Assembly (NCBI GenBank): GCA_037142735.1
Contig: JBAXAB010000001.1
Span: 36,915 to 100,914, forward strand
Source of the DNA: a bacterium
GTDB lineage: Bacteria > Patescibacteriota > Minisyncoccia > Phycocordibacterales > CAIZLB01
Length of the DNA stretch: 64,000 bases
Reading direction: 5' to 3'
Shown piece by piece: positions 2,309-59,272 of the stretch. The notes beneath the pieces are model-generated. The model had not been told where the DNA came from and did no database searches. It saw only the letters and a list, made by a program, of their open reading frames with translations. Every line of letters starts with the position of its first letter. Position 1 is the first letter of the stretch. A program made the translations under genes and the position numbers.

Positions 2309-2434
2309 AAGGGGACTAAATAAAAATTAAGAAGTTATGAAAATCTAGTTTTTATAATGCTCCCCGCCTGGGGATCGTACCTAAATTGGCAAAAGGCTAT
2401 TAAATCAGTATTTTTATGCTATTATCATTCAACT

Positions 2435-3535
2435 ATGGCAAAACTTTCTATCGGAATTGTAGGGCTCCCGAATGTTGGTAAATCAACATTATTTAACGCG
2501 CTCACAAAAAAATCTGTCCCTGCAGAGAACTATCCATTTTGTACTATTGATCCATCCGTTGGAATTGTTCCAGTACCTGACGAGCGTTTATACAAATTAG
2601 CCTCATTTTCTGAAACAGAAAAAACCGTCCCGGCTGTTATTGAATTTGTTGATATCGCAGGGCTTGTTAAAGGTGCCTCTGAAGGAGAAGGTTTAGGAAA
2701 TCAATTTTTGTCCCATATTCGAGAGGTTGATGCAATTGCCGAAGTGGTTAGAATTTTTGAAGACGGAAATGTAATTCATGTTCATGGGAAAGTTGACCCT
2801 ATTAATGACATTGGTGTTATTAACCTTGAATTGATTTTAGCTGATACAGGCACTGTGACAAAACGCCTTGGCAGTCTAGAGAAAGACGTAAAAAAAGGAG
2901 ACAAACTGGCTATAAAAGAAAAAGAAGCACTCACGAAAATTGCCGAAGGCCTGGAAAATGAAAAACTAGCACGTGAAGTTAATCTGACCCCGGAAGAAAA
3001 CGAAGCGATCAAGAACCTAAGTCTTTTGACCATGAAGCCAATCATGTACATCTTGAATCGTAAGGCGGGAAGTGTAAATTTAGATGATGTGAAGGACGGT
3101 AGATTTGAAAAATTGATCGAATTCTTTAAAGAAAAAAATGCGATGTGGACAATTGTTGACGCAGGAGTTGAACATGAACTAAAAGATTTGGAAGGAGACG
3201 AGAAAGAGATGTTTCGAAAAGAATTAGGGGCAAAAGATGATGGAATTAACGCACTTATTAAAAAAGGGTACGAACTTTTGAATTTAGAAACATATTTTAC
3301 GACTGGAAAGGTAGAGACGAGGGCTTGGACTATTGCCAAAGGTTCGACTGCTCCTGTTGCTGGAATGGCAATTCACACAGACTTCAAGGAAAAGTTCATC
3401 AGAGCTGAAATAATCTTTTGGTCAGATCTTTTAAATGCAGGATCATTTGGAACTGCCAGAGAGAAGGGGTTATTGAGGACAGAAGGGAAGGATTATGTGG
3501 TAAAGGATGGAGATGTGATTGAGTTTAAGATATAA
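2435..3535 (+). CDS. ychF: Ribosome-binding ATPase YchF (Obg-family GTPase).
   Basis: MAKLSIGIVGLPNVGKSTLFNALT G1 motif, NYPFCTIDP, C-terminal TGS-like domain. Start moved to the MAKLS ATG at 2435. Confidence 0.95.
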   Translation: MAKLSIGIVGLPNVGKSTLFNALTKKSVPAENYPFCTIDPSVGIVPVPDERLYKLASFSETEKTVPAVIEFVDIAGLVKGASEGEGLGNQFLSHIREVDAIAEVVRIFEDGNVIHVHGKVDPINDIGVINLELILADTGTVTKRLGSLEKDVKKGDKLAIKEKEALTKIAEGLENEKLAREVNLTPEENEAIKNLSLLTMKPIMYILNRKAGSVNLDDVKDGRFEKLIEFFKEKNAMWTIVDAGVEHELKDLEGDEKEMFRKELGAKDDGINALIKKGYELLNLETYFTTGKVETRAWTIAKGSTAPVAGMAIHTDFKEKFIRAEIIFWSDLLNAGSFGTAREKGLLRTEGKDYVVKDGDVIEFKI

Positions 3536-3619
3536 ACTATGGAAAATAAGGGTTTTTTGCCAATTTTAATATAATACTAAAAAATACTTGACATATATTT
3601 AATATGTGCTAGGGTTTTA

Positions 3620-4215
3620 TCAGCGCGAAGGTTCTTTGAACAAAACATCTACGTATCTTGATGGCCGCGAGGTCAATCAAAGGTAAAGATGTCGAACCCT
3701 CTCCGCTCTGGTTACTCGTCCGACGTGTCGTAAACCAGTGTATGCGAAGAACAAACAGCATGTGAGTACCAAGTCAAAGGCACGCTGTTTCGCTAGGCAC
3801 AAAGATAAGTCCGGCGCACAAATGGATGCTTGTCCAAAGCTCCTACTCTATGGGTCCACAGGCGCCGTAAAGCGACATCGAATCGTCGGGAGGGGCAACG
3901 TGCTACCACCCGCTATCGAACTCGCAGCCGCCACCATCGCCGTCGCACAATGCGCGGCCGAGCATCAGAGATGGCCCAAGAAAATCTCAAGGACGAAAAC
4001 GAGCCGGGCAACCTTGAGAATGGACAGCGCTGCGGCGCAACAGGTTTCGATCAATCCCAGGTCGAAAGTGCAGGCAGTCTCGGCAGACACCGAAGCTGAA
4101 CCCGAAGTTCTTACCCGCACACCGAAGGGTACCCCGCTGTTGCGCGCCCCACGCGTGCACAGCGGGGGCCCGACGGCCTCCCACACACTGATCCCACCCC
4201 GGGGTCTTTTTTTGT
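3620..4215 (+). other. GC-rich island 1: ~600-nt segment ending in an intrinsic terminator. Candidate structured ncRNA or small-ORF cassette. Diverged paralog of the element at 18459-18860.
   Basis: Sharp GC rise versus neighbours. Extended hairpins, e.g. CCCCGCUGU..ACAGCGGGG. Conserved blocks shared with island 2 (TCGAACTC..CGCCACCA, ATGG..GACGAAAAC, GGCCCG..CCTCCCACAC). Only low-complexity overlapping ORFs. Confidence 0.4.
4193..4214 (+). terminator. Rho-independent terminator (CCCCGGGG hairpin plus a T7 run).
   Basis: acCCCGGGGtcttttttt lies immediately upstream of the leuS promoter region. Confidence 0.8.
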
Positions 4216-4267
4216 ACCTGAATTAGCGTTACTATCCATTTTTTGCTACTATTATTTTCATACTTTT

Positions 4268-6694
4268 ATGAAAAAGAAGGCCTCAAAATCTGTCTCAAAA
4301 ATCTCTTCAGTCTACGACCACTTAAAAATCGAAAAAAAGTGGCAAGCTGATTGGAAAAAATCGGGAATTTACAAAACCAAAGAGGGAGGTAAAAAGCCAA
4401 AAGCCTACGTCTTGGACATGTTTCCATATCCATCTGGTTCTGGACTTCACGTTGGGCACCCAAAGGGATACATCGCAACAGACGTATTCGCTCGTTTTAA
4501 ACGCATGTCTGGATTTAATGTTTTACATCCAATGGGTTGGGATGCGTTCGGATTACCAGCAGAGGAGTTTGCTTTAAAAAACAAAATTCATCCGAGTATA
4601 GCAGTCAAGACGAATGTAAAGTGTTATAAGGACCAACTTTCAATCCTCGGTTTCTGCTATGACTGGGATCGAGAAGTAAACACCACTGATCCTGAATACT
4701 ATAAATGGACTCAATGGGCGTTTTTACAGATGCATAAAAAAGGTTTGACGTATGAATCTCACGAACCTATCAATTGGTGTCCTTCGTGTAAAACTGGTCT
4801 TGCTAATGAAGATTTAGACAATGGAAAGTGTGAACGCTGTGGTTCAATTGTCGAAAAGAAGCCGATTCGTCAGTGGGTGATTGGCATTACAAAATATGCA
4901 GATAGACTTTTAAGTGATCTGGATGCTTTAGATTGGCCAAATTCTATTAAAGAGTCTCAGAAAAATTGGATTGGTCGTAGTGAAGGATCAGAATTAACCT
5001 TTGAAATTAAAGGTGGAGAGTCCGTCAGTGTTTTTACTACGCGTCCAGATACAATTTTTGGTGTGACATATCTTGTCCTTGCACCTGAGCATCATTTGAT
5101 TGAAAAAATAAAACCACGAATTGAAAACTGGGATAAAGTTCAGTCATTCATCAAAGACGTAGCCAAAAAAACGCAGATCGAACGAACGGCTGAGGGGAAA
5201 GAAAAAACCGGTGTACATTTATCTGGAATTTCTGCTGTGAATCCTGCGAATGGTGAAAAAGTACCCGTCTGGATTGCGGATTACGTTTTAGCAGATTACG
5301 GAACAGGTGCGGTTATGGCAGTACCGGCACATGACGAACGTGATTTTGTCTTTGCTAAAAAATATAACTTACCGATTATGGCAGTAATTGGATCCGAACA
5401 TGTGTCAGACGAAAAAGCCTACACCGGCGGTGGAACTTTGATTAATTCTGGAAAGTTTAACGGAAAAGATTCAGAATCTGTGATTAAGGAAATCACCAAA
5501 TTCTGTAATGGAAAATTAGTAGTGCGCTATAAATTACGAGACTGGGTATTTTCACGTCAGAGATACTGGGGAGAGCCGATTCCACTTGTTCACTGTGCTT
5601 CATGTGGAGTGGTGCCTGTGCCTGAAAAAGAACTTCCACTAAAACTTCCTAATGTAAAATTCTACGAACCGACAGGGACTGGAGAATCTCCTTTGGCTGC
5701 AATCGACAAATGGGTCAATACTAAATGTCCACAATGTAAGGGTCCTGCAAAACGCGAGACGAATACCATGCCTCAATGGGCTGGATCATGTTGGTATTAC
5801 CTTCGATACATGGATCCGAAAAATAAAAAGATGCTCGTGGATCCTAAAAAAGAAAAGTACTGGTCACCAGTTGATGTGTACGTTGGTGGCACCGAGCACG
5901 CAACGAGACACTTGATCTATGCAAGATTTTGGCACAAGTTTTTATATGATATTGGAGTCGTTTCCCAATCAGAACCATTTACGCAATTGCGAAATCAGGG
6001 ATTGATTATGGGACCTGATGGACAAAAAATGAGCAAGCGTTTTGGAAACGTAGTAAACCCAGATGATATTGTGAAATTATATGGAGCTGACAGTCTACGT
6101 GTATACGAAATGTTTATGGGTCCATTTGAGCAAGCGATCTCATGGAGTACTGACAACATGCTTGGTTCAAGACGATTTATTGAGCGTGTTTGGAGATTGA
6201 AACAGAAAATTTCTAAAGATTCTGTTAAAAAGGATACCGAACAACTTCTACATAAGACAATTAAAAAAGTAGGACAAGACATTCAGGGTTTTTCTCACAA
6301 TACTGCCATTTCATCAATGATGATTCTCTTAAATGCCCTAGAAAGTGAGGCTTCTGTTGATAAAAAAACGTATGAAACTCTTCTTCTTATCCTCGCTCCA
6401 TTTACTCCACATATCACTGATGATTTATGGTCTCAACTAGGACACAAAAAGAGCATACATTTGGAGGTGTGGCCTACATATGATGAATCAAAATTAATCA
6501 GTGATTCATTTAAAATAATGATCCAAGTTAATGGAAAAATACGTGGGTCACTAGAGACTAATAATCCTGAGGAAGCCTTTGTAATTAAGGCTGCAAAGGA
6601 AAAACCCGAGATTAAAAAGTATCTCGATGGTAATGAAATTATCAAGGAAATTTACGTCAAAAATAAGCTTGTCAACTTCGTCGTCAAGGGGTAA
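4268..6694 (+). CDS. leuS: Leucine--tRNA ligase.
   Basis: HIGH motif (HVGHP), KMSKS (QKMSKRFGN), CP1 editing domain, ~808 aa. Confidence 0.97.
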   Translation: MKKKASKSVSKISSVYDHLKIEKKWQADWKKSGIYKTKEGGKKPKAYVLDMFPYPSGSGLHVGHPKGYIATDVFARFKRMSGFNVLHPMGWDAFGLPAEEFALKNKIHPSIAVKTNVKCYKDQLSILGFCYDWDREVNTTDPEYYKWTQWAFLQMHKKGLTYESHEPINWCPSCKTGLANEDLDNGKCERCGSIVEKKPIRQWVIGITKYADRLLSDLDALDWPNSIKESQKNWIGRSEGSELTFEIKGGESVSVFTTRPDTIFGVTYLVLAPEHHLIEKIKPRIENWDKVQSFIKDVAKKTQIERTAEGKEKTGVHLSGISAVNPANGEKVPVWIADYVLADYGTGAVMAVPAHDERDFVFAKKYNLPIMAVIGSEHVSDEKAYTGGGTLINSGKFNGKDSESVIKEITKFCNGKLVVRYKLRDWVFSRQRYWGEPIPLVHCASCGVVPVPEKELPLKLPNVKFYEPTGTGESPLAAIDKWVNTKCPQCKGPAKRETNTMPQWAGSCWYYLRYMDPKNKKMLVDPKKEKYWSPVDVYVGGTEHATRHLIYARFWHKFLYDIGVVSQSEPFTQLRNQGLIMGPDGQKMSKRFGNVVNPDDIVKLYGADSLRVYEMFMGPFEQAISWSTDNMLGSRRFIERVWRLKQKISKDSVKKDTEQLLHKTIKKVGQDIQGFSHNTAISSMMILLNALESEASVDKKTYETLLLILAPFTPHITDDLWSQLGHKKSIHLEVWPTYDESKLISDSFKIMIQVNGKIRGSLETNNPEEAFVIKAAKEKPEIKKYLDGNEIIKEIYVKNKLVNFVVKG

Positions 6695-7851: not shown

Positions 7852-9144
7852 ATGTATCTTGCTCTCATTCAATCTTCACTTGGGCCAGCTTTCACCTTTA
7901 TCTATTTGGTTGCTATTATCGCGATACCAATAGTGTTGTTTTTTGAACTTAATAAGAAATGGCAGAAATACCTACATGCTTATTATTTTAACAAACAAAC
8001 ATACACAGTTCTTGAATTAAAGATTCCAAAAAACAATACCAAATCACCACTTGCCATGGAGATTTTTCTTAATGCCCTTCAACAACCAGGAAAGGATTAC
8101 GAATGGAGAAAAAAATGGTGGACAGGAGAGGTTCGTGCCTGGTTCTCGCTAGAGATATGTTCGTTCGAAGGTAATGTACGTTTTTTTATATGGACAAAAA
8201 CAAAATATAAAGATTTACTAGAGAACCAGTTGTATTCTCAGTATCCAGATATTGAAATTAGTGACGTCGGCGCGCGTGACTATACGTACAACATACCCTT
8301 TGATGAAAGTAAGTATGAATACTGGGCTACCGAATGGAGAAAAAGAGAGCCTTCTCACTTACCTATAAAAACCTACATGGCTTTTGGACTTCAAGATGAT
8401 CCAAAAGAAGAATTTAGAATCGATCCAATTACACCACTTTTTGAATTTTTAGGATCACTGAAAAAAGGAGAACAGGTATGGTATCAAATTTGTGTCCGAG
8501 CACACGGAAAGGACAAATTTGATAAGGGAAAAGGTGCCTACGTTGACTGGAAGCACGCTGCTCAGAAGGATGTGTTGAAACTGACAAAACGAGATGCTCC
8601 TAATAAAGATGATAAATTTAATTTCATCATTTTGACCAAGGGTGAAAAACAAGCAGCGGATGCAATTGAAGACAACATTACAAAAGCAGCTTTCGATGTC
8701 GGAATTCGTGTTATCTATGCGGCAGAGAAAAGTGTATATCAAAAAAGTACCGTAGGTCGTATTAAAGCTTCGTTTAACCAGTTCAATGCCCCGAATTTGA
8801 ATAGTTTTGCTCGTGTGAATGACATTGACGATGACAAGTGGCGTTACCATTACTTACCATTCGGAAACAAGAGACTTTCTCGTCATAAAAAAAGACTTTT
8901 CGATCTTTATCGGCACCGATCGTTCTTTTATAGAGACTTTGTTCCGTATCCTCACAAAGAGGAAGAATTGATTTCGAACTTCTGGGTTTCAGATATAACA
9001 ACATGGTTTGATTCAAAAATCACCACATTCAGTGCTGAAGAGCTAGCAACTATTTACCACTTCCCAGGAGAAGTCGCAAAGACGCCAAGTGTAAACCGTG
9101 TGACTGCCAAGAAAGCCGAACCACCATCAAACTTACCTCAATAA
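7852..9144 (+). CDS. Hypothetical membrane-anchored protein (430 aa).
   Basis: N-terminal TM helix, Trp/Lys-rich, no recognisable catalytic motif. Directly downstream of the sigma-r4/HARE-HTH gene. Confidence 0.65.
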   Translation: MYLALIQSSLGPAFTFIYLVAIIAIPIVLFFELNKKWQKYLHAYYFNKQTYTVLELKIPKNNTKSPLAMEIFLNALQQPGKDYEWRKKWWTGEVRAWFSLEICSFEGNVRFFIWTKTKYKDLLENQLYSQYPDIEISDVGARDYTYNIPFDESKYEYWATEWRKREPSHLPIKTYMAFGLQDDPKEEFRIDPITPLFEFLGSLKKGEQVWYQICVRAHGKDKFDKGKGAYVDWKHAAQKDVLKLTKRDAPNKDDKFNFIILTKGEKQAADAIEDNITKAAFDVGIRVIYAAEKSVYQKSTVGRIKASFNQFNAPNLNSFARVNDIDDDKWRYHYLPFGNKRLSRHKKRLFDLYRHRSFFYRDFVPYPHKEEELISNFWVSDITTWFDSKITTFSAEELATIYHFPGEVAKTPSVNRVTAKKAEPPSNLPQ

Positions 9145-9160
9145 TTTTAATTCATATCTA

Positions 9161-10159
9161 ATGAGAATCTTTAAAGAACATATATTTGTAATCTACTCGG
9201 TACTTCTAGCAGTGTTGATATTGGTAGTTGGAATAGCTGCTAAAATATTTATACCAGTTGAAATCCCACGGGACGGATCAGTGATTGTACATATTGATAA
9301 AGGGCAAAGCCTTATTAGTATTTCACATGAATTAGAAAAAGAGCAGATCATTGATTCTCCATTCCTTTTCCGCCTGATTATTACATTGCGTGGAAGTGAA
9401 AACAGTATCCCAGCTGGTTATTACTTATTCTCAGATGACAGCGGCCAATCTGGTAGAAGTCGTTACAGTCTAAGTGCAATTGCCAGGCGCTTAGCTCAAG
9501 GAGAAATGGGTTTTAGGCCACAGAAAATTACCATACCAGAAGGGTTGAACGTTATTGACATTGGAAATAAGGTACACCAAGAATTTCCAGCCATTGACGC
9601 ATTAGAGTTTGCGAGCTCTGCTAAGCCTTATGAAGGATACCTTTTCCCAGATACGTACCTCTTTATGCCTTATGCAACATCTGGTGAAATTATACATAAA
9701 ATGAGGGATACCTTTGAACAAAAAGTGACTGATAATCCTTTATTCGCTGAGGCAATCGCAAGTTCTACACACTCATTTGCAGATATTATAAAAATGGCCT
9801 CAATTCTAGAAGGAGAAGTGAGAACTTTAGAGGATCGCAAAATTGTATCCGATTTGCTATGGCGCAGAATAAAAAAAGGCATGCCATTACAAGTCGATTC
9901 TACTTTTAAGTATATAAATCAAAAAACATCTGCTCAACTAACTTTAGGCGACTTAAAAATTGACTCTCTCTACAATACCTACAAATATAAAGGTTTGCCT
10001 CCGACACCAATTTCAAATCCAGGCCTTGAAACATTATTTGCGGCGGCAGAACCGACTCCAAATCAATATGTATTCTTTTTAAATGATAAGGATGGAATAA
10101 GTCATTTCGCTAAAACATTTGCAGAGCACATTCGTTACAAAAACCAATATTTGAAATAG
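9161..10159 (+). CDS. mltG: Endolytic murein transglycosylase MltG (YceG family).
   Basis: N-terminal TM, YEGYLFPDTY and GLPPTPISNPG motifs typical of YceG/MltG. Confidence 0.9.
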   Translation: MRIFKEHIFVIYSVLLAVLILVVGIAAKIFIPVEIPRDGSVIVHIDKGQSLISISHELEKEQIIDSPFLFRLIITLRGSENSIPAGYYLFSDDSGQSGRSRYSLSAIARRLAQGEMGFRPQKITIPEGLNVIDIGNKVHQEFPAIDALEFASSAKPYEGYLFPDTYLFMPYATSGEIIHKMRDTFEQKVTDNPLFAEAIASSTHSFADIIKMASILEGEVRTLEDRKIVSDLLWRRIKKGMPLQVDSTFKYINQKTSAQLTLGDLKIDSLYNTYKYKGLPPTPISNPGLETLFAAAEPTPNQYVFFLNDKDGISHFAKTFAEHIRYKNQYLK

Positions 10160-17384: not shown

Positions 17385-18458
17385 ATGAAGCTATTTATTA
17401 CCGGAGGAGCAGGATACGTCGGGGCAATGTTGGCAGATCAGTTCAGCGGGCGGGCAGATGTTGAAAAGATTTTATTGGTAGACAAAGAAGCAGAGCCACA
17501 GTTACTAAAGAACAATCCCAATTATTCAAAAATTCAATTTATTCAAAGCAATCTTGGAGATACAAACTGGCAGGATCAGGTTCGTGCATTTACACCTGAT
17601 GTCGTCATTCACACTGCGTGGCAAATTCGTGAAATGTTTGGCAAAAAAGAATTACAGTGGAAATGGAATGTGACAGGCTCTGATAATGTCTTCGATGTCG
17701 CCTTTGAATTAACTTCTGTGAAGAAACTGATTTATTTCTCTACTGTTTCAAGTTACGGAGCATTTTCAGACAACCAACTTGATCACTTTATAAAAGAAGA
17801 AGAGCCTTTTCGTGAAAACACTTATTTATACGGTGTTGAAAAAAAGGAAGTTGAGGTGCATCTCCATAAAAAATATGAAGAGGCCAAGAAAGCTGGAACA
17901 CATGTGCCCCAGATCTTCATTGTACGACCCGCAGCAATCACTGGAACACGTGGACGCTACATGCGCGTACGATTTGGTCTCCAGGCGGCCCTTTCTGGTC
18001 AATTAAAGGGTAATTTTGTGTACAGAATGATCTCATTCATGGTTTCTTTTGTGCCGGCAACTAAAAAATGGTGTCGACAATTTATTCATGAAGATGATGT
18101 GTGTAATATTGTGGAATTATTTACTTTTACTGAACTGAAGGGAGACTACGAGGTTTTTAACATCTGTCCACCTGGCCAAATCGTGACTGCTACTGATATG
18201 GCCAAAGCCGTGGGTAAAAAACCAATCTTTTTGCCTCCATGGTTAATTCGTATTGTTTTTGCCTTTATGTGGAATGTATTCCGGGGAAGAGTGCCGACTT
18301 CAAAGGGTGGCTGGAAATTCTATTCATATCCAGTTGCAGTTGATGGTTCAAAACTGACGAAACAATATGGTTATCAATACAAATACAATTCTTTAGATGC
18401 GTTTACTAAAAGGGAGGGCAGATATTCTAAATATACAGAATCTGAGACTAAGTTATAA
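17385..18458 (+). CDS. NAD-dependent epimerase/dehydratase (SDR family).
   Basis: [20 protein letters not shown] Rossmann motif and the YxxxK region. Confidence 0.85.
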
Positions 18459-18502
18459 AAAAATCCCGCGGACAAGTCGATGGGGGTCGGCTCATCCGCG
18501 GG
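18455..18502 (-). terminator. Intrinsic terminator for a minus-strand transcript.
   Basis: Minus strand reads CCCGCGGA..UCCGCGGG (8-bp stem) followed by AUUUUUUUAU. Confidence 0.7.
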
Positions 18503-18860
18503 AAGCGTGTGGAGGGGGAATTGTTTACGGGCCGCCTGCTACAGGTGACCTACGCTGACGATTTCTGCGGAACCTCCGGACGTATTTTCGTTTTTCTCGT
18601 CCATGGTCAGTGGGCTTGAAGGGACTCGCCCTTCAGGTTGGTTGGGCCGGGCGTGACCTTGGCTGGTGGGCGGAGAGTTCCGACTGGGGTGTCCCAGTTT
18701 TTCTGGAGCTGTTTCCTGTAGTGATCGTGGGATTGAGGCTTTGCAGGCGCCTCGGGTGTTGCTGTCATGGTTTCGTTGGTGGTTGGTTGCTTCGTGGCTA
18801 CGTGAACTTCTGGCGCCGACTATCGGCGTCAAAAAATCCATCGCAGGGTTCAAAAAATAA
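18459..18860 (-). other. GC-rich island 2: minus-strand paralog of island 1 with A/C-rich leader, two tiny coupled ORFs and a terminator. Candidate ncRNA or small-ORF cassette.
   Basis: Shares ordered blocks with island 1 (TCGGAACTCTCCGCCCACCA, ATGGACGAGAAAAACGAAAA, GGCCCG..CCTCCACAC). Leader ..aaccaaccaccaacgaaaccATG. Inverted repeat TCCATCGCA..TGCGATGGA at the 5' end. Confidence 0.4.
18607..18768 (-). CDS. Candidate small ORF (53 aa, MTATPEAPAKPQSHDHYRKQ...) after the A/C-rich leader of island 2.
   Basis: ATG right after the ACCACCAA leader. Its stop lies 2 nt before the ATG of a second 21-aa ORF (18539-18604). No homology recognised; may be non-coding. Confidence 0.25.
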   Translation of the reverse strand: MTATPEAPAKPQSHDHYRKQLQKNWDTPVGTLRPPAKVTPGPTNLKGESLQAH

Positions 18861-18996
18861 GTGACTTACTTTCTAAACTTTGCGATGGATACACCTTTGA
18901 TGAACTTATTCTGTGGAGCAGTATAATACCTTTTGTTAAAAAAGTCAATATTTTGAATCTTTCTGCCACGATTGCTTTATGTTAATATCAAACGCA

Positions 18997-20844
18997 ATGA
19001 AATCATCCGAAATTAGGAAGCGTTTTATAGACTTCTTCAAAGAGCAGGGGCACGCAGAAATCCCATCCGCCTCTCTTGTTCCTGAAAATGACCCGTCGGT
19101 TTTATTTAATACTGCTGGAATGCAGCCCCTTGTTCCATATTTATTAGGTGAAAAACACCCGCTTGGTGTTAGATTGGTAGATTTTCAAAAATGTGTAAGA
19201 ACAGTAGACATTGATGACATCGGGGACAACACTCATGCCACTTTTTTTGAAATGATGGGGAATTGGTCTTTGGGAGATTATTTTAAAAAGGAAGCAATTG
19301 AATGGAGTTACACGTTATTAACAGACAAAGAGAAAGGTTTTGGTCTTGATCCGCAGAGACTATATGTGACATGTTTTGAAGGCGATGAAAATGCCCCAAG
19401 AGACGAAGAGAGCGCAAGTATTTGGAAATCAATTTTTGAAAAAAACAAGGTAACTGGAAACAGAATCTATTTTTTAAATGCAAAAAGTAACTGGTGGAGC
19501 CCGGGAGAGAACGGCCCGTGCGGCCCTGATACAGAAATGTTTTATGACGTTACAGGCACATTAAACCAAGGATTAACACATGAAGAATATCTAAAGGCAG
19601 ATGAGAAACAACAAGTGGTAGAGATCTGGAACGATGTTTTCATGGAATATGAAAAGAGGGATGGAAAAGTGGTAGGGAAATTGGCTAATAAAAATGTAGA
19701 TACTGGTTCAGGATTTGAACGTGTCACTATGGTTCTTCAAGGTAAAGATAATATCTTTGACACAGATATTTTTAGCCCGATTATCCAAAAAATTGAAGAA
19801 TTTGTGGGAGAAGTAAGTTTGGAAGTAGGCGAGCTCAAAAAACTAAAGCGTATTATTGCTGATCACGTTCGAACATCAGTGATGTTAATTTCTGACGGTG
19901 TTTTGCCTTCAAATACGGATCAAGGATATATATTGAGGCGTCTTATCAGACGAGCGGTTCGATGTGCTGACAGATTGGGTCTAAAAGCAGGTTCATTGTT
20001 TTGGATTGCGGAGACAGTGGTTGATCAATACGAAGAGGTATATAGAAATGTAAAGCAACAACGCGAAACCATCAAGGTAGCAATCGATAAAGAAGAACAG
20101 AAATTTAGAAATACATTACATGATGGACTCAAACTGCTCGACAAAATCTTAAATAAGTCTTCTGATCAAACAATCACAGGTGAAACTCTTTTTAAGATGT
20201 ACACCACGTATGGTTTTCCGCTTGAAAATTCATTTGATGAAATTAATCATATGCGCATTTCAAAAGGTCTAGGAATCTTAGATTCCGTCACTCGTCAAAA
20301 ATTAGTAGAAGAATTTAATTCTTTTATTCATCAACACCAAGACGTGTCAAAAGCCGGCTCTGAACAAAAATTCAAAGGAGGCCTTGGTGGTCACGGAGAG
20401 GTGGAAACAAGGTATCACACTGCTACACACTTACTCCACCAGGCCCTGAGAGAAGTACTTGGTGATCATGTCTCTCAAAAAGGAAGCAACATCACGGCCG
20501 AAAGAATGCGTTTTGACTTTACTCATCCGACCAAAATGACTGAAGCTGAAAAATCTAAAGTTGAAAAAATCGTTAATGACAAAATCCAAGCAAGTCTTCC
20601 TGTGAACGTGGTTGAATTAGATCGTGAAGCAGCCGAAAAAACTGGGGCGCTTCACTTTTTTGGTGACAAATATGGAGACAAAGTGACGGTGTATTACATT
20701 GGTGACTCAATCGAGGCTGCATTTTCAAAAGAATTTTGTGGAGGACCGCATGTGAAAAATACAAAGGAATTAGGAACCTTCAAAATTGCAAAGGAAGAGG
20801 CAGTCGCGTCAGGTGTTCGTCGTATCAAAGCAGTCCTAGAATAA
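18997..20844 (+). CDS. alaS: Alanine--tRNA ligase, short form lacking the C-terminal C-Ala/DHHA1 domain.
   Basis: Class II catalytic core (FEMMGNWSLGDYFK), editing-domain HxxxH (HTATHLLHQALREVLGDHVSQKGS) and CGGPHV motif. Protein ends ~616 aa. Start taken at MKSSEIRK. Confidence 0.92.
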   Translation: MKSSEIRKRFIDFFKEQGHAEIPSASLVPENDPSVLFNTAGMQPLVPYLLGEKHPLGVRLVDFQKCVRTVDIDDIGDNTHATFFEMMGNWSLGDYFKKEAIEWSYTLLTDKEKGFGLDPQRLYVTCFEGDENAPRDEESASIWKSIFEKNKVTGNRIYFLNAKSNWWSPGENGPCGPDTEMFYDVTGTLNQGLTHEEYLKADEKQQVVEIWNDVFMEYEKRDGKVVGKLANKNVDTGSGFERVTMVLQGKDNIFDTDIFSPIIQKIEEFVGEVSLEVGELKKLKRIIADHVRTSVMLISDGVLPSNTDQGYILRRLIRRAVRCADRLGLKAGSLFWIAETVVDQYEEVYRNVKQQRETIKVAIDKEEQKFRNTLHDGLKLLDKILNKSSDQTITGETLFKMYTTYGFPLENSFDEINHMRISKGLGILDSVTRQKLVEEFNSFIHQHQDVSKAGSEQKFKGGLGGHGEVETRYHTATHLLHQALREVLGDHVSQKGSNITAERMRFDFTHPTKMTEAEKSKVEKIVNDKIQASLPVNVVELDREAAEKTGALHFFGDKYGDKVTVYYIGDSIEAAFSKEFCGGPHVKNTKELGTFKIAKEEAVASGVRRIKAVLE

Positions 20845-31712: not shown

Positions 31713-31925
31713 CTATTTTTTGGCCACCTTCGGCTGCTCGAACGCGAGCTCGAAGAAGTTTGTTAGGACTTCCTTTTGTCTCTTGTTCAATTGGACTTCG
31801 CCCTCCTTGTCGAGAACTTCCCGCAGCAAACGAAGACTGGCTCTTAGCTCTGTTGCTTTGGGGTGAGTTTTCGGGACGACGAGTGTCTTGCAAAAGGTTC
31901 TGACCGAGCGATCTTTGTCTGCCAT
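31713..31925 (-). CDS. Small protein (70 aa, MADKDRSVRTFCKTLVVPKTHPKATELRASLRLLREVLDKEGEVQLNKRQKEVLTNFFELAFEQPKVAKK) in GC-rich island 4.
   Basis: ATG directly after the A/C-rich leader gcacaaaattcaccacaaccaaaacccactcaccacc. Own promoter and terminator. The GTG at 31979 lies inside the promoter -10. Confidence 0.6.
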   Translation of the reverse strand: MADKDRSVRTFCKTLVVPKTHPKATELRASLRLLREVLDKEGEVQLNKRQKEVLTNFFELAFEQPKVAKK

Positions 31926-31969
31926 GGTGGTGAGTGGGTTTTGGTTGTGGTGAATTTTGTGCCAGTAAC

Positions 31970-31999
31970 ATTTTAACACGAATAAGCTTATACTGTCAA
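31970..31999 (-). promoter_or_regulatory. Sigma70-like promoter (TTGACA-N18-TAAAAT) for island 4.
   Basis: Minus strand TTGACAgtataagcttattcgtgtTAAAATgttactg. Confidence 0.55.
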
Positions 32000-32072
32000 A
32001 TCATCCTCGTGCAGGAAAATCTATACGCTCCTCTTGTCTTTTAACATCTTTTATCATATACTGTCTCACACT

Positions 32073-38817: not shown

Positions 38818-39405
38818 CTAGGCCTCGACCCCGATCAGTCCGCTCAACATGCTACGGACCAGGTTTGTCGAGGCCATCACAGGGATTCGGGCCAGTTCGA
38901 ATTGCAGGGCGAAGACAGGATCGTCGAGCACAACGCGCGCGGCGCTGAAAGGCAGATCCACTCGGCCGTTGTAGAGAACCAAGCCTTCAGCCTGAACCGA
39001 GCGCAACTTGAGAACCTCCGAGACTTCCGTTCCGGACAGATCCAGATGAGCCTTGATTTTGACCTGTTCGATGGACAACCTCTTCCATCTGTTCCTGTAC
39101 ATGTCGATGTACCTGACTTCGGCACAATCAGACATGTGAAATGCGGAACCTTCACAGCCGGAGACATGAAGGCCGCCCAGGAGATTGCACTTTTCGAAGC
39201 CGATCCTGCAGTCTGGCTCATTTTCGATGTGAAGCCATCCGTTGAAGGTGGTGTTCCGGAAACAGAGGGAATTGATAGGATTCTTCTTTCCGCCGTTGAT
39301 CGAGAAGTCATCAGTGACGATGAACGACTCGTGAATACCGAGCCCGTGTGGGCTGGTGAGTTTTGCCAGATACTCTGCTGGCTTTATGAGTGTAGGTGAT
39401 GACAT
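38818..39405 (-). CDS. Pentapeptide-repeat protein (195 aa) in GC-rich island 5.
   Basis: Tandem A(D/N)LxX-like pentads (CNLLG GLHVS GCEGS AFHMS DCAEV ..LDLSG TEVSE..). GGAGG SD 9 nt upstream of the ATG. Confidence 0.75.
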   Translation of the reverse strand: MSSPTLIKPAEYLAKLTSPHGLGIHESFIVTDDFSINGGKKNPINSLCFRNTTFNGWLHIENEPDCRIGFEKCNLLGGLHVSGCEGSAFHMSDCAEVRYIDMYRNRWKRLSIEQVKIKAHLDLSGTEVSEVLKLRSVQAEGLVLYNGRVDLPFSAARVVLDDPVFALQFELARIPVMASTNLVRSMLSGLIGVEA

Positions 39406-41689: not shown

Positions 41690-42262
41690 CTACGGGCCGA
41701 CTTCGAAGTCGAGGTAGCCGGCAACCTCGACTGGTGGCAAAGATGGGTTCTTAACCCGGGCAACGAGATTGGCAATATCTTTGCGACTGGCGTTCACTGG
41801 CTTGTAGGTGAAGTCGGTCTCACTGACTTCGAGATTGACACTGTTGATGTATGACCCGAGCTCTTGAGCGCGAAAGTAATCATCAGCATTCTTCTTTTTG
41901 TCGCTGTTAGCCAGAGCCTTCAGCTCTTCAAGCCTTCGGTTACCGCTTAGGATACGCAAACGCATCCTGTAATCGGCGACCCAGTATGACCCGAAGTAGG
42001 GAAGAGACTTGGTTTTGCTCAGCTCGACAGAGGTCACCTTCCGTTCTTTGAGGGCGACGCTCACCTTGTCGATGAGCCTGGCGATTTCACCCTCTGACAA
42101 TTTGGATTGCTCCATCTTATCGAGGACTTTGACCGCCTCGGCATATGGGGCGATGCGTTTTTGTGCTTTCTCCTTTTCATTTGGCAATGAGACTGCCACC
42201 ATGATCGCGGCCATAAGGCCCGCGAGCATGAAGATAGGGAGAATTTTCTGACTTTGATACAT
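41690..42262 (-). CDS. Hypothetical secreted or membrane-anchored protein (190 aa) in GC-rich island 9.
   Basis: ATG preceded by the A/C-rich leader actgaaccacaaaccaaccaccaatatc. N-terminal signal/TM. Promoter TTGACA-N17-TATTAT on the minus strand at 42377-42405. Confidence 0.6.
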   Translation of the reverse strand: MYQSQKILPIFMLAGLMAAIMVAVSLPNEKEKAQKRIAPYAEAVKVLDKMEQSKLSEGEIARLIDKVSVALKERKVTSVELSKTKSLPYFGSYWVADYRMRLRILSGNRRLEELKALANSDKKKNADDYFRAQELGSYINSVNLEVSETDFTYKPVNASRKDIANLVARVKNPSLPPVEVAGYLDFEVGP

Positions 42263-42376
42263 GATATTGGTGGTTGGTTTGTGGTTCAGTATGAAAGGCC
42301 TTTGGACACTTGCGTGTACTCTAGCCGTTCATTGCTAAACCCAAACTCCATCACAGATGTAAAGAACTTTGATAAA

Positions 42377-42405
42377 ATAATACATTGAATATACAATAGT
42401 GTCAA
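42377..42405 (-). promoter_or_regulatory. Sigma70-like promoter (TTGACA-N17-TATTAT) for the island 9 gene.
   Basis: Minus strand TTGACActattgtatattcaatgTATTAT. Divergent from the pif1-like gene. Confidence 0.5.
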
Positions 42406-44732: not shown

Positions 44733-44761
44733 TTGACAAACAATCTAAATAGTAGGATAAT
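44733..44761 (+). promoter_or_regulatory. Sigma70-like promoter (TTGACA-N17-GATAAT) for island 6.
   Basis: TTGACAaacaatctaaatagtagGATAAT. The ~150-nt leader holds an imperfect hairpin (GGATGCAAaaagga..ttctccTTGCATCT) and then the A/C-rich tract. Confidence 0.55.
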
Positions 44762-44918
44762 ATACCTAGTAGATAGGGGTTCTTTACATTGGTTCAGATG
44801 GGCTTTCAAGGATGCAAAAAGGATGGGTCCAGACAAGACCTTTTCTCCTTGCATCTTTGGAAAGCTTACGCCGCCCAAGGGTCACACCACCACACCTAAC
44901 CACCACCGACCACCCACC

Positions 44919-45419
44919 ATGAAAAACATCACCCGCAGCGCCTTCCGTAGGCAAGAACGAAACAAAGGCATTGTAGCCATCGCTGCAACCTTCGTGATCG
45001 CTTTGATCATCGCCGCATTTGCATTCGTCGTCTGGGCTCACACCGAGAACCCCGACAACTGGAAGGCAGAGGCGAAACTGGGAATGAAGCGTCAGCAAGC
45101 CGCGAGGTTTGTTGTCGAGACTCTCCGCGAAGTGAGAATGTTCCAGCAGGAACTCTCAGCGGAGAAAAAAATCACGGTTGCCAAAGCACTAGCCGAAGTC
45201 AAAGAAGGCCTCGCGGACATCAACAACCCTCCAAGCCGACTAACAACTGAGCGGCTGCGCAAGTCACTGGCGAACATCCGCATCTACGAGCACCCCGTGT
45301 TCGAAGAGCTCCTGGAGGAATCCGGAGCCGACTGGTTGCCGACCATTCGTGAGTGCCTCCTTGGGGTGTCAACACACCGCGAGGTCAAGCTCATCGTCCA
45401 AAGCGCCGAAATCGAGTAG
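44919..45419 (+). CDS. Membrane-anchored protein (166 aa, single TM) in GC-rich island 6.
   Basis: ATG directly after cacaccaccacacctaaccaccaccgaccacccacc. TM IVAIAATFVIALIIAAFAFVVWA. The upstream in-frame extension from 44733 overlaps the promoter and is unlikely to be coding. Confidence 0.6.
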   Translation: MKNITRSAFRRQERNKGIVAIAATFVIALIIAAFAFVVWAHTENPDNWKAEAKLGMKRQQAARFVVETLREVRMFQQELSAEKKITVAKALAEVKEGLADINNPPSRLTTERLRKSLANIRIYEHPVFEELLEESGADWLPTIRECLLGVSTHREVKLIVQSAEIE

Positions 45420-45464
45420 GGGAATAAAGTACCCGAGCTCGGCAAGAGGCCTTCGGGCCAAAAG

Positions 45465-45545
45465 ACACCTGCGCGTAGCACTTCGAAAGAAATCTTCAAA
45501 AATTTCCCGAAGCGCACGCCAGGTGTTTTCTTTTTTATTTTTTGT
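45465..45545 (+). terminator. Long hairpin plus T-run terminator of island 6. A GGCCUUCGGGCC tetraloop hairpin lies just upstream at 45448-45459.
   Basis: ACACCUG..CAGGUGU outer stem followed by UUUUCUUUUUUAUUUUUUG. Confidence 0.55.
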
Positions 45546-57746: not shown

Positions 57747-57870
57747 GAAGGTTAGTTTAGCAAAAATATGCTTAATTTAAAAGGTTTTGAATTAACACGT
57801 ATATTGACAAATATATATAGATATGGTATCATTAGAAAGTAGACAGATCTTTAAAAGCAGGTCATTGGTA

Positions 57871-57917
57871 GGTTACAGACAACTTCTTGTTTCTTAAGTA
57901 AGTAGTTGTCTGTAACC
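57871..57917 (+). promoter_or_regulatory. Perfect 14-bp inverted repeat (GGTTACAGACAACT-N19-AGTTGTCTGTAACC) just upstream of the island 7 leader. Operator-like and overlaps a weak promoter.
   Basis: Seen directly. Followed by taaGGTTGCGGaaaacaacacaccaccaataccc ATG. Confidence 0.5.
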
Positions 57918-57951
57918 TAAGGTTGCGGAAAACAACACACCACCAATACCC

Positions 57952-58428
57952 ATGAAAACACCCCTCAACTTCATCGAAACCCACGCTTACACGCTCGCCA
58001 TCACGATCGGAGGAAGCGTCATCGCCTGCATCCTCATCGGATGCGTGATGCTCCGGCAAGCCTATATCAAGGCGCAAAGTGCAAAGCGCGCCCGCAAGGA
58101 CGAGCTGGACACAGAAACCGCCGTCTGCGCGGAGCTGCGATACCCAATGCTTCGCGACTCTTACCGCAAAGCGGTCAGCACCAGGCGACGGTTCGACACC
58201 AAATCCCCGATCGCCGACGAGATGTACAACCATCTCAGCGACATCCGGTTCGCGTTCTTCGAAGGAGTCGCTCGCCTCATCGGGCGAGGGGCACCACTCT
58301 ACGTAGACAAATTCCCTCGCGGAGTGTGTCACGTGATCTGGAACACGCTCTTCGGTTGGACCATCCTCCTCACCGGCTGGCTTCACCTCGTTGAAGTCGC
58401 CCGGGCGAAGGAGGTCCAAGCGAGCTGA
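57952..58428 (+). CDS. Membrane-anchored protein (158 aa) in GC-rich island 7.
   Basis: ATG after the A/C-rich leader aaaacaacacaccaccaataccc. TM LAITIGGSVIACILIGCVML, Arg-rich cytoplasmic region, second hydrophobic segment near the C-terminus. Confidence 0.6.
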   Translation: MKTPLNFIETHAYTLAITIGGSVIACILIGCVMLRQAYIKAQSAKRARKDELDTETAVCAELRYPMLRDSYRKAVSTRRRFDTKSPIADEMYNHLSDIRFAFFEGVARLIGRGAPLYVDKFPRGVCHVIWNTLFGWTILLTGWLHLVEVARAKEVQAS

Positions 58429-58454
58429 GAGCAGATCGTCCTGGAAAACCCAAA

Positions 58455-58502
58455 GCCGTCAGGCGCAAGTACCCACTCTTGCCCTGGCGGTTTTCCTTTT
58501 GT
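58455..58502 (+). terminator. Intrinsic terminator of the island 7 gene.
   Basis: Long imperfect hairpin CCGUCAGGCGCAAG..CUUGCCCUGGCGG followed by UUUUCCUUUUGU. Confidence 0.5.
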
Positions 58503-58530
58503 ATACATAATTTATTTTAAGTGACAGCAT

Positions 58531-58572
58531 TTTAAAAACGAACACCCGGCCCTTCGTGAGAAATGCCGGGTG
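58531..58572 (-). terminator. Intrinsic terminator of the pilin gene.
   Basis: Minus strand CACCCGGC..GCCGGGUG followed by UUCGUUUUUAAAAUG. Confidence 0.6.
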
Positions 58573-58617
58573 GTGTGAGTTTGATGGACGCTTGTGAAGC
58601 TGCCGGTCGCCGCCGAG

Positions 58618-59031
58618 TTAGTTGTAGGGCGACCAGAAGCTTGCGGCTGCGGGAGTGTCCTTCGTGACGTCGGCGAACGCTTCGACGGTTGCAGACGAAA
58701 CCTTTGCATGTCGGGTTCCGACGGGCAAGGTGATCGCATGACCGAGGATGTCCACGCCGCCGCTCGAGTAGAGACGCGTGCCGGGTTTGAGGTAGGCCTG
58801 GACGTCCATCCACTTGGGGATGACGCCAGGTTCCTTCGCCGCGAGGGCGTATTGGTCGGCAGCGATGTCAACGAGCCGCAGCTCTTCGATCGTCATGTTC
58901 GCCTGCGAACGCTTGCGGCCACGCAGCCAGTTCGGGACGGCGATGGCGGCGAGCAGGGCGATGATCGCGACGACGATCATGATTTCAACGAGCGTAAAGC
59001 CCGTGCGTTTGGTGTTCAGTTTACGGAGCAT
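58618..59031 (-). CDS. Type IV pilin / pseudopilin (138 aa) in GC-rich island 8.
   Basis: Class III signal and N-terminal helix MLRKLNTKRTGFTLVEIMIVVAIIALLAAIAVPNW (G|FTLVE). ATG directly after caacgcaacatcaaaccaacaccaaacaacacacc. The upstream extension to 59163 is unlikely to be coding. Confidence 0.8.
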   Translation of the reverse strand: MLRKLNTKRTGFTLVEIMIVVAIIALLAAIAVPNWLRGRKRSQANMTIEELRLVDIAADQYALAAKEPGVIPKWMDVQAYLKPGTRLYSSGGVDILGHAITLPVGTRHAKVSSATVEAFADVTKDTPAAASFWSPYN

Positions 59032-59094
59032 GGTGTGTTGTTTGGTGTTGGTTTGATGTTGCGTTGCAGAACGCAGCCAATGCCGTGAGGCGCT

Positions 59095-59142
59095 GGTTGC
59101 GGAATAAAGACAATATAAAAATACAGGCTTTATTCCGCAACC
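59095..59142 (-). promoter_or_regulatory. Perfect 15-bp inverted repeat (GGTTGCGGAATAAAG-N18-CTTTATTCCGCAACC) embedding a TTGCGG-N17-TATATT promoter-like sequence upstream of the pilin leader.
   Basis: Seen directly. Shares the GGTTGCGG word with the sequence after the island 7 palindrome. Confidence 0.5.
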
Positions 59143-59272
59143 ATTCACATATGTGTCCATCAATATTTAAGGAACAATTTATTAAAAATTATCACAGATG
59201 TGGGTAAAGTCAAGTGTGTTGTAACCAGTACACAGGGTAAAAAATAAAGGATCAAGAAAACAATAACAAAAA

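Follow-up and report, generated by a model that had tools for sequence, protein, structure and literature searches.

GC-rich islands beside leuS and alaS in a Patescibacteria genome: candidate stand-alone transcription units with conserved ends and unconserved interiors

What is carried by two GC-rich islands that lie next to the aminoacyl-tRNA synthetase genes leuS and alaS in a genome of the Patescibacteria? Both are located in a 64-kb stretch of DNA (hereafter the window), which is part of a 128-kb metagenomic contig (ENA ERZ27300101 k141_330149) and of which an independent Logan assembly holds an identical copy. The relatives of its LeuS, MnmA and AlaS proteins are all encoded by metagenome-assembled genomes of Patescibacteria/Paceibacteria. 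Island 1 (3620-4215, plus strand) is situated between ychF (2357-3535) and leuS (4268-6694), and island 2 (about 18915-18457, minus strand) between an epimerase gene (17385-18458, plus strand) and alaS (plus strand, from 18979, with a likely start at 18997). Their guanine plus cytosine (GC) content reaches 55% (3717-4283) and 54% (18410-18866), in a window of 40% GC whose native genes have 30% GC at 4-fold degenerate sites. In our best reading, both islands are lineage-restricted, stand-alone transcription units that would have been inserted between housekeeping genes of a Paceibacteria-like genome. Their cargo is most likely non-coding RNA (ncRNA), or RNA with only vestigial micro-open reading frames (micro-ORFs), because no reading frame in it appears to be constrained. 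Comparison with loci of relatives (designated by L-numbers such as L163, L167 and L174) shows purifying selection on the predicted promoters, on the putative leader hairpins of island 2 and on the predicted 3′ hairpin and terminator of island 1; the interiors of the islands are unconserved, with no detectable constraint on protein or RNA sequence. The comparison set includes one ortholog of island 1 (L174) and two of island 2 (L167 and L163), and the promoters and terminators of the islands were called as consensus matches in the sequence.

The promoter region of island 1 (3540..3620, plus strand, as are all parts of this island) contains a near-consensus sigma-70 promoter, read from the sequence, with a -35 box TTGACA (3588-3593), a 16-nt spacer and the element TGc-TAGGGT (3607-3615); transcription is predicted to start near 3622. 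It is followed by a long 5′ stem-loop (3630..3698), present in both the minimum free energy (MFE) and the centroid folds, by a variable GC-rich core (3699..4112) and by a conserved 3′ module (4113..4215). The core contains an ORF of 42/49 amino acids (3950/3971-4099) and most of a 162-amino acid ORF (3738-4226), which is part of a 179-codon open frame and overruns the T-run of the terminator. In the 3′ module, a perfect hairpin (CCCCGCUGU/ACAGCGGGG, 4132-4167) with a C-rich apical loop is followed by a C/A-rich linker and by an intrinsic terminator (hairpin 4190-4206, T-run 4207-4213) that was found by a terminator scan. Downstream of this terminator, and outside the island, leuS has its own promoter and short leader (4222..4267, plus strand; TTAGCG, 18 nt, TACTAT), and this promoter is homologous in L163, L175 and L177, all of which lack island 1. 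The MFE z-scores obtained for the folds are -2.3, -4.6 and -5.9.

A counterpart of island 1 was identified only in L174, whose LeuS is 95% identical to that of the window (87% at the nucleotide level) and whose 4-fold sites are 58% identical. The upstream neighbour differs between the two genomes (ychF in the window, a NUDIX gene in L174), and conservation begins right past the upstream stop codon. Over the 81 nt of the promoter region, identity is 90% (binomial p = 2e-10, with 58% as the neutral expectation); it is 83-100% in the final ~100 nt of the island, in the terminator and in the leuS promoter. The consensus fold of the 3′ module, derived from these two sequences, comprises 19 pairs of which 2 are compensatory, and a covariance model of this module (R2) matches only the window and L174 copies. 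The core of ~490 nt, compared over 492 nt in the window (3621-4112, the 5′ stem-loop included) and 485 nt in L174 (712-1196), has no similarity to its counterpart in either orientation (z 0.5, -0.2 and -1.0, like unrelated controls), whereas a core that had diverged neutrally to 58% identity would, in a simulation allowing even 8% indels per site, give a z of about 9. This argues that the core has been replaced or is hyper-diverged, and has not merely drifted. Whole-body GC is 57% in the window and 52% in L174, and the latter has a hairpin of different sequence at the position equivalent to the 5′ stem-loop. An invertible core was also considered and rejected, since z is -1.0 for the L174 core in reverse complement.

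The slot that island 1 occupies holds something else in other relatives. L163 is syntenic with the window throughout ychF-alaS (MnmA 77% identical), and its ychF-leuS slot (2220-2815) harbours an AT-rich, frame-broken HD-domain gene instead of island 1; homology between the two stops at the ychF stop codon and restarts at 4222, with the leuS promoter. The idea that island 1 is a diverged remnant of this HD gene was discarded, as the two have no similarity. The slot upstream of leuS contains a DUF5671 gene in L176 (1987-2964), and a GC-rich lipoprotein cassette fills the ychF-leuS slot in L175 and L177. A tyrosine integrase (L175) or a serine recombinase (L176) is encoded nearby; the region concerned in L175 is 8182-9279. 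With a different insert in each relative and an integrase or recombinase in the vicinity, the ychF-leuS slot is thus an insertion hot spot. A GC island upstream of leuS is absent at 31/31 leuS loci of GTDB Patescibacteria; these and the JGI leuS loci are distant (66% identity or less) and informative only for the absence of island 1. Neither phage nor plasmid collections gave a match to island 1 DNA, exact-pattern scans of viral contigs yielded 0 matches to the hairpin of island 2 and to the terminator of island 1, and when the islands were compared by blastn/tblastx with one another, with the remainder of the window and with about 170 fetched loci, nothing was returned for island 1.

Island 2 is encoded on the minus strand, and all its parts are given in that orientation. 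Its predicted promoter (18920..18948; TTGACT, 17 nt, TATACT; 10/12 matches in a promoter scan) lies back-to-back with the alaS promoter and is kept in L167 and L163. The conserved leader (18769..18915) comprises a hairpin of 24 bp (18890-18836) followed by a U-run (18835-18831), a second hairpin (18828-18814) and a C/A-rich tract without Shine-Dalgarno sequence that extends up to an AUG at 18768. The variable GC-rich body (18503..18768) contains ORFs of 53 (18768-18607) and 21 amino acids (18604-18539). A terminator (18457..18502), read from sequence and fold, consists of a 13-bp hairpin (18502-18465) and a U7 tract (18463-18457) and abuts the stop codon of the convergent epimerase gene; L167 and L163 have one terminator in common, different from that of the window.

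This unit is present in three genomes, those of the window, L167 (AlaS 88% identical) and L163 (AlaS 76%). It is absent in L168 (AlaS 78%), L172, L173 and L169-L171, in which 1-40 nt separate alaS from the gene before it: alaS begins 1-20 nt past the epimerase gene in L168 and L170-L173, and 40 nt past a preceding uncharacterised gene in L169. Since the epimerase gene abuts alaS in relatives without the island, the insertion of island 2 appears to have split an operon-like epimerase-alaS pair and to have brought the present alaS promoter as well (region 18949-18996). The window and L167 are 75% identical over 238 nt, with neutral sites saturated (30-47%), and this conserved stretch contains the alaS-proximal region and the island promoter, both hairpins with the U-run between them, and the C/A-rich leader with its AUG. 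For the leader in the three sequences, 34 pairs are predicted by RNAalifold, 4 of them with compensatory changes, and a covariance model of the leader (R1) scores 141-178 bits in the three orthologs. Past the AUG, the three bodies are unalignable, the lone tblastx match (window versus L167/L163) being 8 amino acids long. The ORFs that start from the fixed AUG have 53, 76 and 67 codons and unrelated products, with a combined p of 0.046 in a length test. No further copy of R1 was detected in the window, where island 1 remained unmatched even with filters off. In L163 (873-1015, minus strand), R1 has a weaker match (33.8 bits) to a second leader hairpin, a homolog of that in island 2 with compensatory stem changes and an apical UAAGUA, which precedes a 283-amino acid GC-rich ORF without Pfam match.

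Could the unalignable bodies nevertheless encode proteins? No reading frame is conserved between orthologs of either island, tblastx of the bodies finding nothing beyond 8 amino acids, and L174 has no ORF corresponding to that of island 1. The period-3 z-scores of the bodies are 2.1 for island 1, -1.1 for L174, -0.4 and -0.7 for island 2 (-0.7 for the 53-amino acid ORF), 2.7 for L167 and 1.9 for L163; values of 12-15 were obtained for 4/5 GC-rich cassette genes of the window, described below (4/6 when all coding controls are counted). Searches of Pfam and PHROGs with all island ORFs of 50 amino acids or more gave no match, and comparison of the 178-amino acid frame of island 1 with 1.84 billion representative proteins gave one marginal match (E = 2e-4, 36 amino acids), judged to be due to chance. 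Whether examined for frame conservation, for periodicity or for homologs, neither island thus looks like protein-coding DNA.

The lipoprotein cassette that fills the leuS slot in L175 (9480-9960) and L177 (2405-2960) serves as a positive control. It encodes proteins of 108 and 132 amino acids, with Pro/Cys-rich repeats and a signal peptide ending ...TGC, at a place where no gene had been called. The divergence of L175 and L177 (LeuS 96.8% identical in amino acids, 4-fold sites 67%) resembles that of the window and L174, and their cassettes align end to end, with 78% nucleotide and 83% amino acid identity, in-frame indels, and codon differences that are synonymous-only in 21 cases and non-synonymous in 18. 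The period-3 z of the cassette is 0.7, without strong periodicity. As this cassette is still alignable at a similar divergence, a coding cargo in island 1 would have stayed visible.

The two islands resemble a broader set of elements in the window. Five GC-rich stand-alone gene cassettes are located at 31713-32000 (minus strand), 41690-42400 (minus), 44733-45540 (plus), 57800-58490 (plus) and 58530-59160 (minus). Their genes encode proteins of 70 (31925-31713, minus), 190 (42262-41690, minus), 166 (44919-45419, plus) and 158 amino acids (57952-58428, plus) and a pilin-like protein (59031-58618, minus; PF07963, E = 5e-8); these small membrane or pilin-like ORFs have period-3 z-scores of 3.6-15 and a GC content at third codon positions of 0.61-0.79. 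We define the cassette layout here, without reference to a published family, as a TTGACA-type promoter, a long 5′ hairpin, a C/A-rich leader without Shine-Dalgarno sequence, a GC-rich body and an intrinsic terminator, the whole unit being located at a variable slot with core genes on either side. The signature of a C/A-rich leader plus ATG occurs in the window in six GC islands, namely the five cassettes and island 2, and at one spurious 4-codon site elsewhere. Island 2 has all features of the class, this signature included. Island 1 has the promoter, the hairpin, the GC-rich body, the terminator and the variable slot, and the leader ahead of its 3950 AUG is less C/A-rich. Homology between the outer parts of cassettes was found only for island 2 and the L163 hairpin at 873-1015. 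Small-protein cassettes, such as the lipoprotein cassette of L175/L177 and those at 44919-45419, 57952-58428 and 59031-58618 of the window, thus have the same layout as the islands, and the lipoprotein cassette even the same slot as island 1. In contrast to the islands, they exhibit either codon periodicity (4/5 in the window) or, for the lipoprotein, amino acid conservation with in-frame indels. Native genes of the window likewise start without a Shine-Dalgarno sequence, and in many of them a TATAAT box lies 5-8 nt ahead of the ATG (e.g. starts 20889, 22010, 42439, 44212 and 63584), which suggests that leaderless mRNAs are widespread among them.

This layout also bears on the likeness between the islands themselves. 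The sequence-only reading had described them as diverged paralogs with ordered conserved blocks. All eight blocks are indeed present in the order and on the strands given, starting at 3916, 3971, 4068 and 4164 in island 1 (plus strand) and lying at 18683-18664, 18604-18581, 18542-18532 and 18536-18505 in island 2 (minus strand). That reading was also right about the terminators at the end of both islands (4190-4213, plus; 18502-18457, minus), the perfect hairpin of island 1 at 4132-4167, the ORF sizes (42/49 and 53+21 amino acids) and the position of island 1 directly 5′ of leuS, whose start is at 4268. The paralogy it drew from the blocks could not be upheld. Comparison of the islands with each other by blastn (word size 7) and tblastx produced no match, and the local Smith-Waterman score was below the shuffle mean. 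End-to-end alignment of the proposed segments gives z 2.3-2.9 against dinucleotide shuffles, and this value falls to 1.3-2.2 (p 0.03-0.1) if letters are shuffled within 20-40-nt windows, which preserves local composition. This drop argues that the resemblance is mostly a shared order of composition and not of sequence: a C/A-rich tract, then an AUG with Lys/Glu/Asn codons, then a GC hairpin and then a T-run. The proposed blocks are the grammar of the cassette class, with a C/A-rich tract left unstructured in the GC-rich RNA of an organism that does without Shine-Dalgarno sequences, an AUG, a GC hairpin and a T-run. Neither R1 nor R2 matches across the islands, each model being island-specific. 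It thus appears that islands 1 and 2 are unrelated, with a common architecture and not a common ancestry.

The second half of the earlier proposal, that the islands are structured RNAs and not protein genes, holds in part. They show no protein-gene behaviour, are rich in hairpins and are bounded by a predicted promoter and terminator. A conserved structured RNA is unsupported: the interior is unconserved in the closest relatives, and structure is kept only in the 5′ leader of island 2 and in the 3′ ~100 nt of island 1. A cmscan search of Rfam 15 at gathering thresholds gave 0 matches to known families in the 64-kb window and the five orthologous loci. At E <= 10, each island matched only unrelated models (10.8-16.1 bits), and the island 1 ortholog in L174 gave two 16-17-bit matches (E <= 5) only; the permissive matches overall (10.8-16.7 bits) were to unrelated eukaryotic, viral or small RNA models. 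Large or housekeeping RNAs such as OLE, ROOL, GOLLD, the raiA motif, RNase P, transfer-messenger RNA (tmRNA) and 6S are, like the islands, intergenic and rich in hairpins, with a length of several hundred nucleotides, a GC content above that of the host and their own promoter and terminator. Unlike the islands, whose core is unconserved even at 95% LeuS identity, they have a core conserved across phyla. ARAGORN predicted no tRNA or tmRNA in the window, and a tRNA or tmRNA identity was rejected because the sequence ahead of '...GCCGCCACCA' is unable to form a T-arm or acceptor stem. Mimicry of a tRNA 3′ end or a T-box by the '...CCACCA' blocks was likewise rejected, as there is no T-arm/acceptor stem and the motif is lost in orthologs; we treat these blocks as a by-product of C/A-rich composition. 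A protein-sponge RNA was also considered and set aside, since no k-mer is enriched in the five island bodies except the terminator T-run.

What, then, are the islands? The purifying selection on their promoters and end modules favours the reading that they are expressed as fast-evolving RNAs, non-coding or with micro-ORFs, and that any function of these RNAs would lie in the ends or in transcription beside the aminoacyl-tRNA synthetase promoters, and we put the chances of this at about even. The conserved ends could serve RNA stabilization, the C-rich apical loop could be available for pairing, or transcription itself could insulate or supply the adjacent synthetase promoters. The cargo, in turn, may be exchanged through recombination between the conserved ends. 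Several points weigh against this reading. The promoters and terminators are consensus matches, predicted from sequence, and the compensatory evidence is thin, with 2 pairs in the 3′ module of island 1 and 4 in the leader of island 2, from one or two orthologs each. The fixed AUG of island 2, with its ORFs of 53/76/67 codons (p = 0.046) and the period-3 z of 2.7 in L167, could reflect a fast-evolving micro-protein there; a micro-protein origin for both islands, weighed below, seems quite unlikely to us. The 179-codon open frame of island 1 is longer than in most shuffles (p = 0.027). The island bodies have 46-72% GC, as compared with 30% at native 4-fold sites, a composition that non-coding cargo does not explain unless one also assumes that it is selected for or that the bodies were acquired recently. 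Finally, the overlapping alaS promoter may be behind part of the conservation of the island 2 leader.

Among the alternatives, the islands could be dead cargo, that is, decayed GC-rich acquired genes or foreign DNA in which promoter and terminator are kept only through overlap with leuS and alaS signals. Both slots would fit such an origin, being insertion hot spots with different genes per relative and an integrase or resolvase nearby. The island 1 terminator stands directly ahead of the leuS promoter, the conserved region of island 2 includes the alaS promoter (relatives without this island having alaS fused to the epimerase operon), and the long open frame of island 1 (p = 0.027) might be a vestige of a gene. 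However, the island 1 promoter, about 600 nt from leuS, is still 90% conserved as compared with 58% at neutral sites, and the island 2 hairpins keep their pairing via compensatory changes well beyond the alaS promoter. Moreover, GC stays at 46-72% despite a neutral equilibrium of about 30%, with neutral sites near saturation, and the island 1 core looks replaced rather than decayed. We therefore regard dead cargo as unlikely, though it keeps some weight.

Alternatively, the islands could encode small fast-evolving proteins of 53 (plus 21) amino acids in island 2 and 42/49 amino acids in island 1, started from C/A-rich leaders. Indeed, the island 2 AUG and its C/A-rich leader are kept in three genomes with ORFs of 53/76/67 codons, the same leader-plus-AUG signature stands ahead of clear protein genes, a gene finder called the L167 ORF, whose period-3 z is 2.7, and the 49-amino acid frame of island 1 is coding-like, its GC content peaking at the first codon position and being lowest at the second. 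Against this, the products are unrelated in sequence apart from the single 8-amino acid tblastx match, and the short stretches of DNA that match between the window and L167 are not in the same frame. The 53-amino acid ORF of the window has a period-3 z of -0.7, the combined test of ORF length gives a p of only 0.046, no ORF is common to island 1 and L174, and the lipoprotein cassette displays real coding conservation at a comparable distance. This explanation hence seems quite unlikely for the two islands together.

It is hard to give much credence to the proposal that the islands are cis-regulatory leaders of the adjacent synthetase genes, T-box- or attenuator-like. Island 1 is co-oriented with leuS, with its terminator 54 nt ahead of this gene, and beside alaS, the leader of island 2 contains a hairpin with a U-run behind it. 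Like T-box leaders, island 1 is located immediately 5′ of a synthetase gene and has an intrinsic terminator at its end; unlike them, it has no T-box motif, is a unit of about 600 nt, is separated from leuS by a distinct leuS promoter and is missing in close relatives. T-box (RF00230) and other Rfam families were unmatched even at E <= 10, and the promoter that leuS has past the terminator is conserved in relatives without island 1. Island 2 is divergent from alaS, its U-run is only U4 in the orthologs and is missing after the homologous hairpin at L163 873-1015, and both islands are missing from most relatives. The weakest explanation is the earlier one, already largely refuted and by now very improbable, by which the two islands would have diverged as paralogs within a single novel family of structured ncRNAs, in opposite orientations: short colinear blocks (z 2.3-2.9 against dinucleotide shuffles), MFE z-scores of -2.3, -4.6 and -5.9 and the lack of coding signal in both units speak for it, but BLAST and Smith-Waterman detect nothing, preserving the composition lowers z to 1.3-2.2, R1 and R2 match their own locus only, Rfam has nothing, and similarity between paralogs could hardly persist when the bodies of orthologs are already unalignable at 88-95% identity of the flanking proteins.

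Returning to the preferred reading of the islands as expressed, fast-evolving RNAs, it is tempting to go one step further and to suggest that Paceibacteria of this clade carry 'expression shells' that exchange GC-rich cargo of roughly constant length by recombination, a suggestion that we regard as speculative and rather improbable. The ends of such shells would be a consensus promoter with a 5′ stem-loop on one side and a conserved hairpin with a terminator on the other. Some cargos would be small surface proteins, and islands 1 and 2 would be ncRNAs selected for composition and not for sequence; such transcripts might come from foreign DNA that was captured and is expressed as RNA, or might act as a decoy or sponge. 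A related process is horizontal regulatory switching, reportedly described by Oren et al. in 2014, in which intergenic or regulatory regions are said to be replaced by recombination in conserved flanks. Island 1 resembles it in having a non-homologous segment between near-identical flanks at a fixed chromosomal position. It differs in that the flanks are its own promoter and 3′ hairpin/terminator and that what is swapped is the transcribed body, whose length and GC are similar in the two genomes. The islands also recall integron cassettes, with exchangeable cargo at a fixed site and hairpin-forming sequences beside the cargo; unlike integron cassettes, they carry their own promoters and are scattered and not arrayed. 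No attC motif (RYYYAAC...GTTRRRY) flanks the islands in the sequence, and no IntI integrase is encoded beside them among the called genes around leuS or across the ychF-alaS stretch of L163.

Two other features of the window were observed. A moderately GC-rich ORF of 195 amino acids (38818-39405, minus strand) has the sole gene start seen with a clear GGAGG Shine-Dalgarno sequence and may have been acquired recently. A 41-nt direct repeat occurs in three copies (145-185, 755-795 and 1284-1324; 61-95% identical) at the left end of the window, in the spacers of consecutive minus-strand genes.

Our analysis removes a false lead, since the islands are neither a new paralogous family of structured RNAs nor RNase P, tmRNA or T-box RNAs. 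It also shows how accessory DNA is organized in a streamlined Patescibacteria genome, as small strong-promoter units at hot spots between essential genes. If they exist, expression shells would be a cassette system independent of an integrase. Should the swapping of cargo hold in more genomes, it would account for gene callers leaving such stretches empty and would offer these episymbiotic bacteria a compact way to diversify their surface proteins and RNAs.

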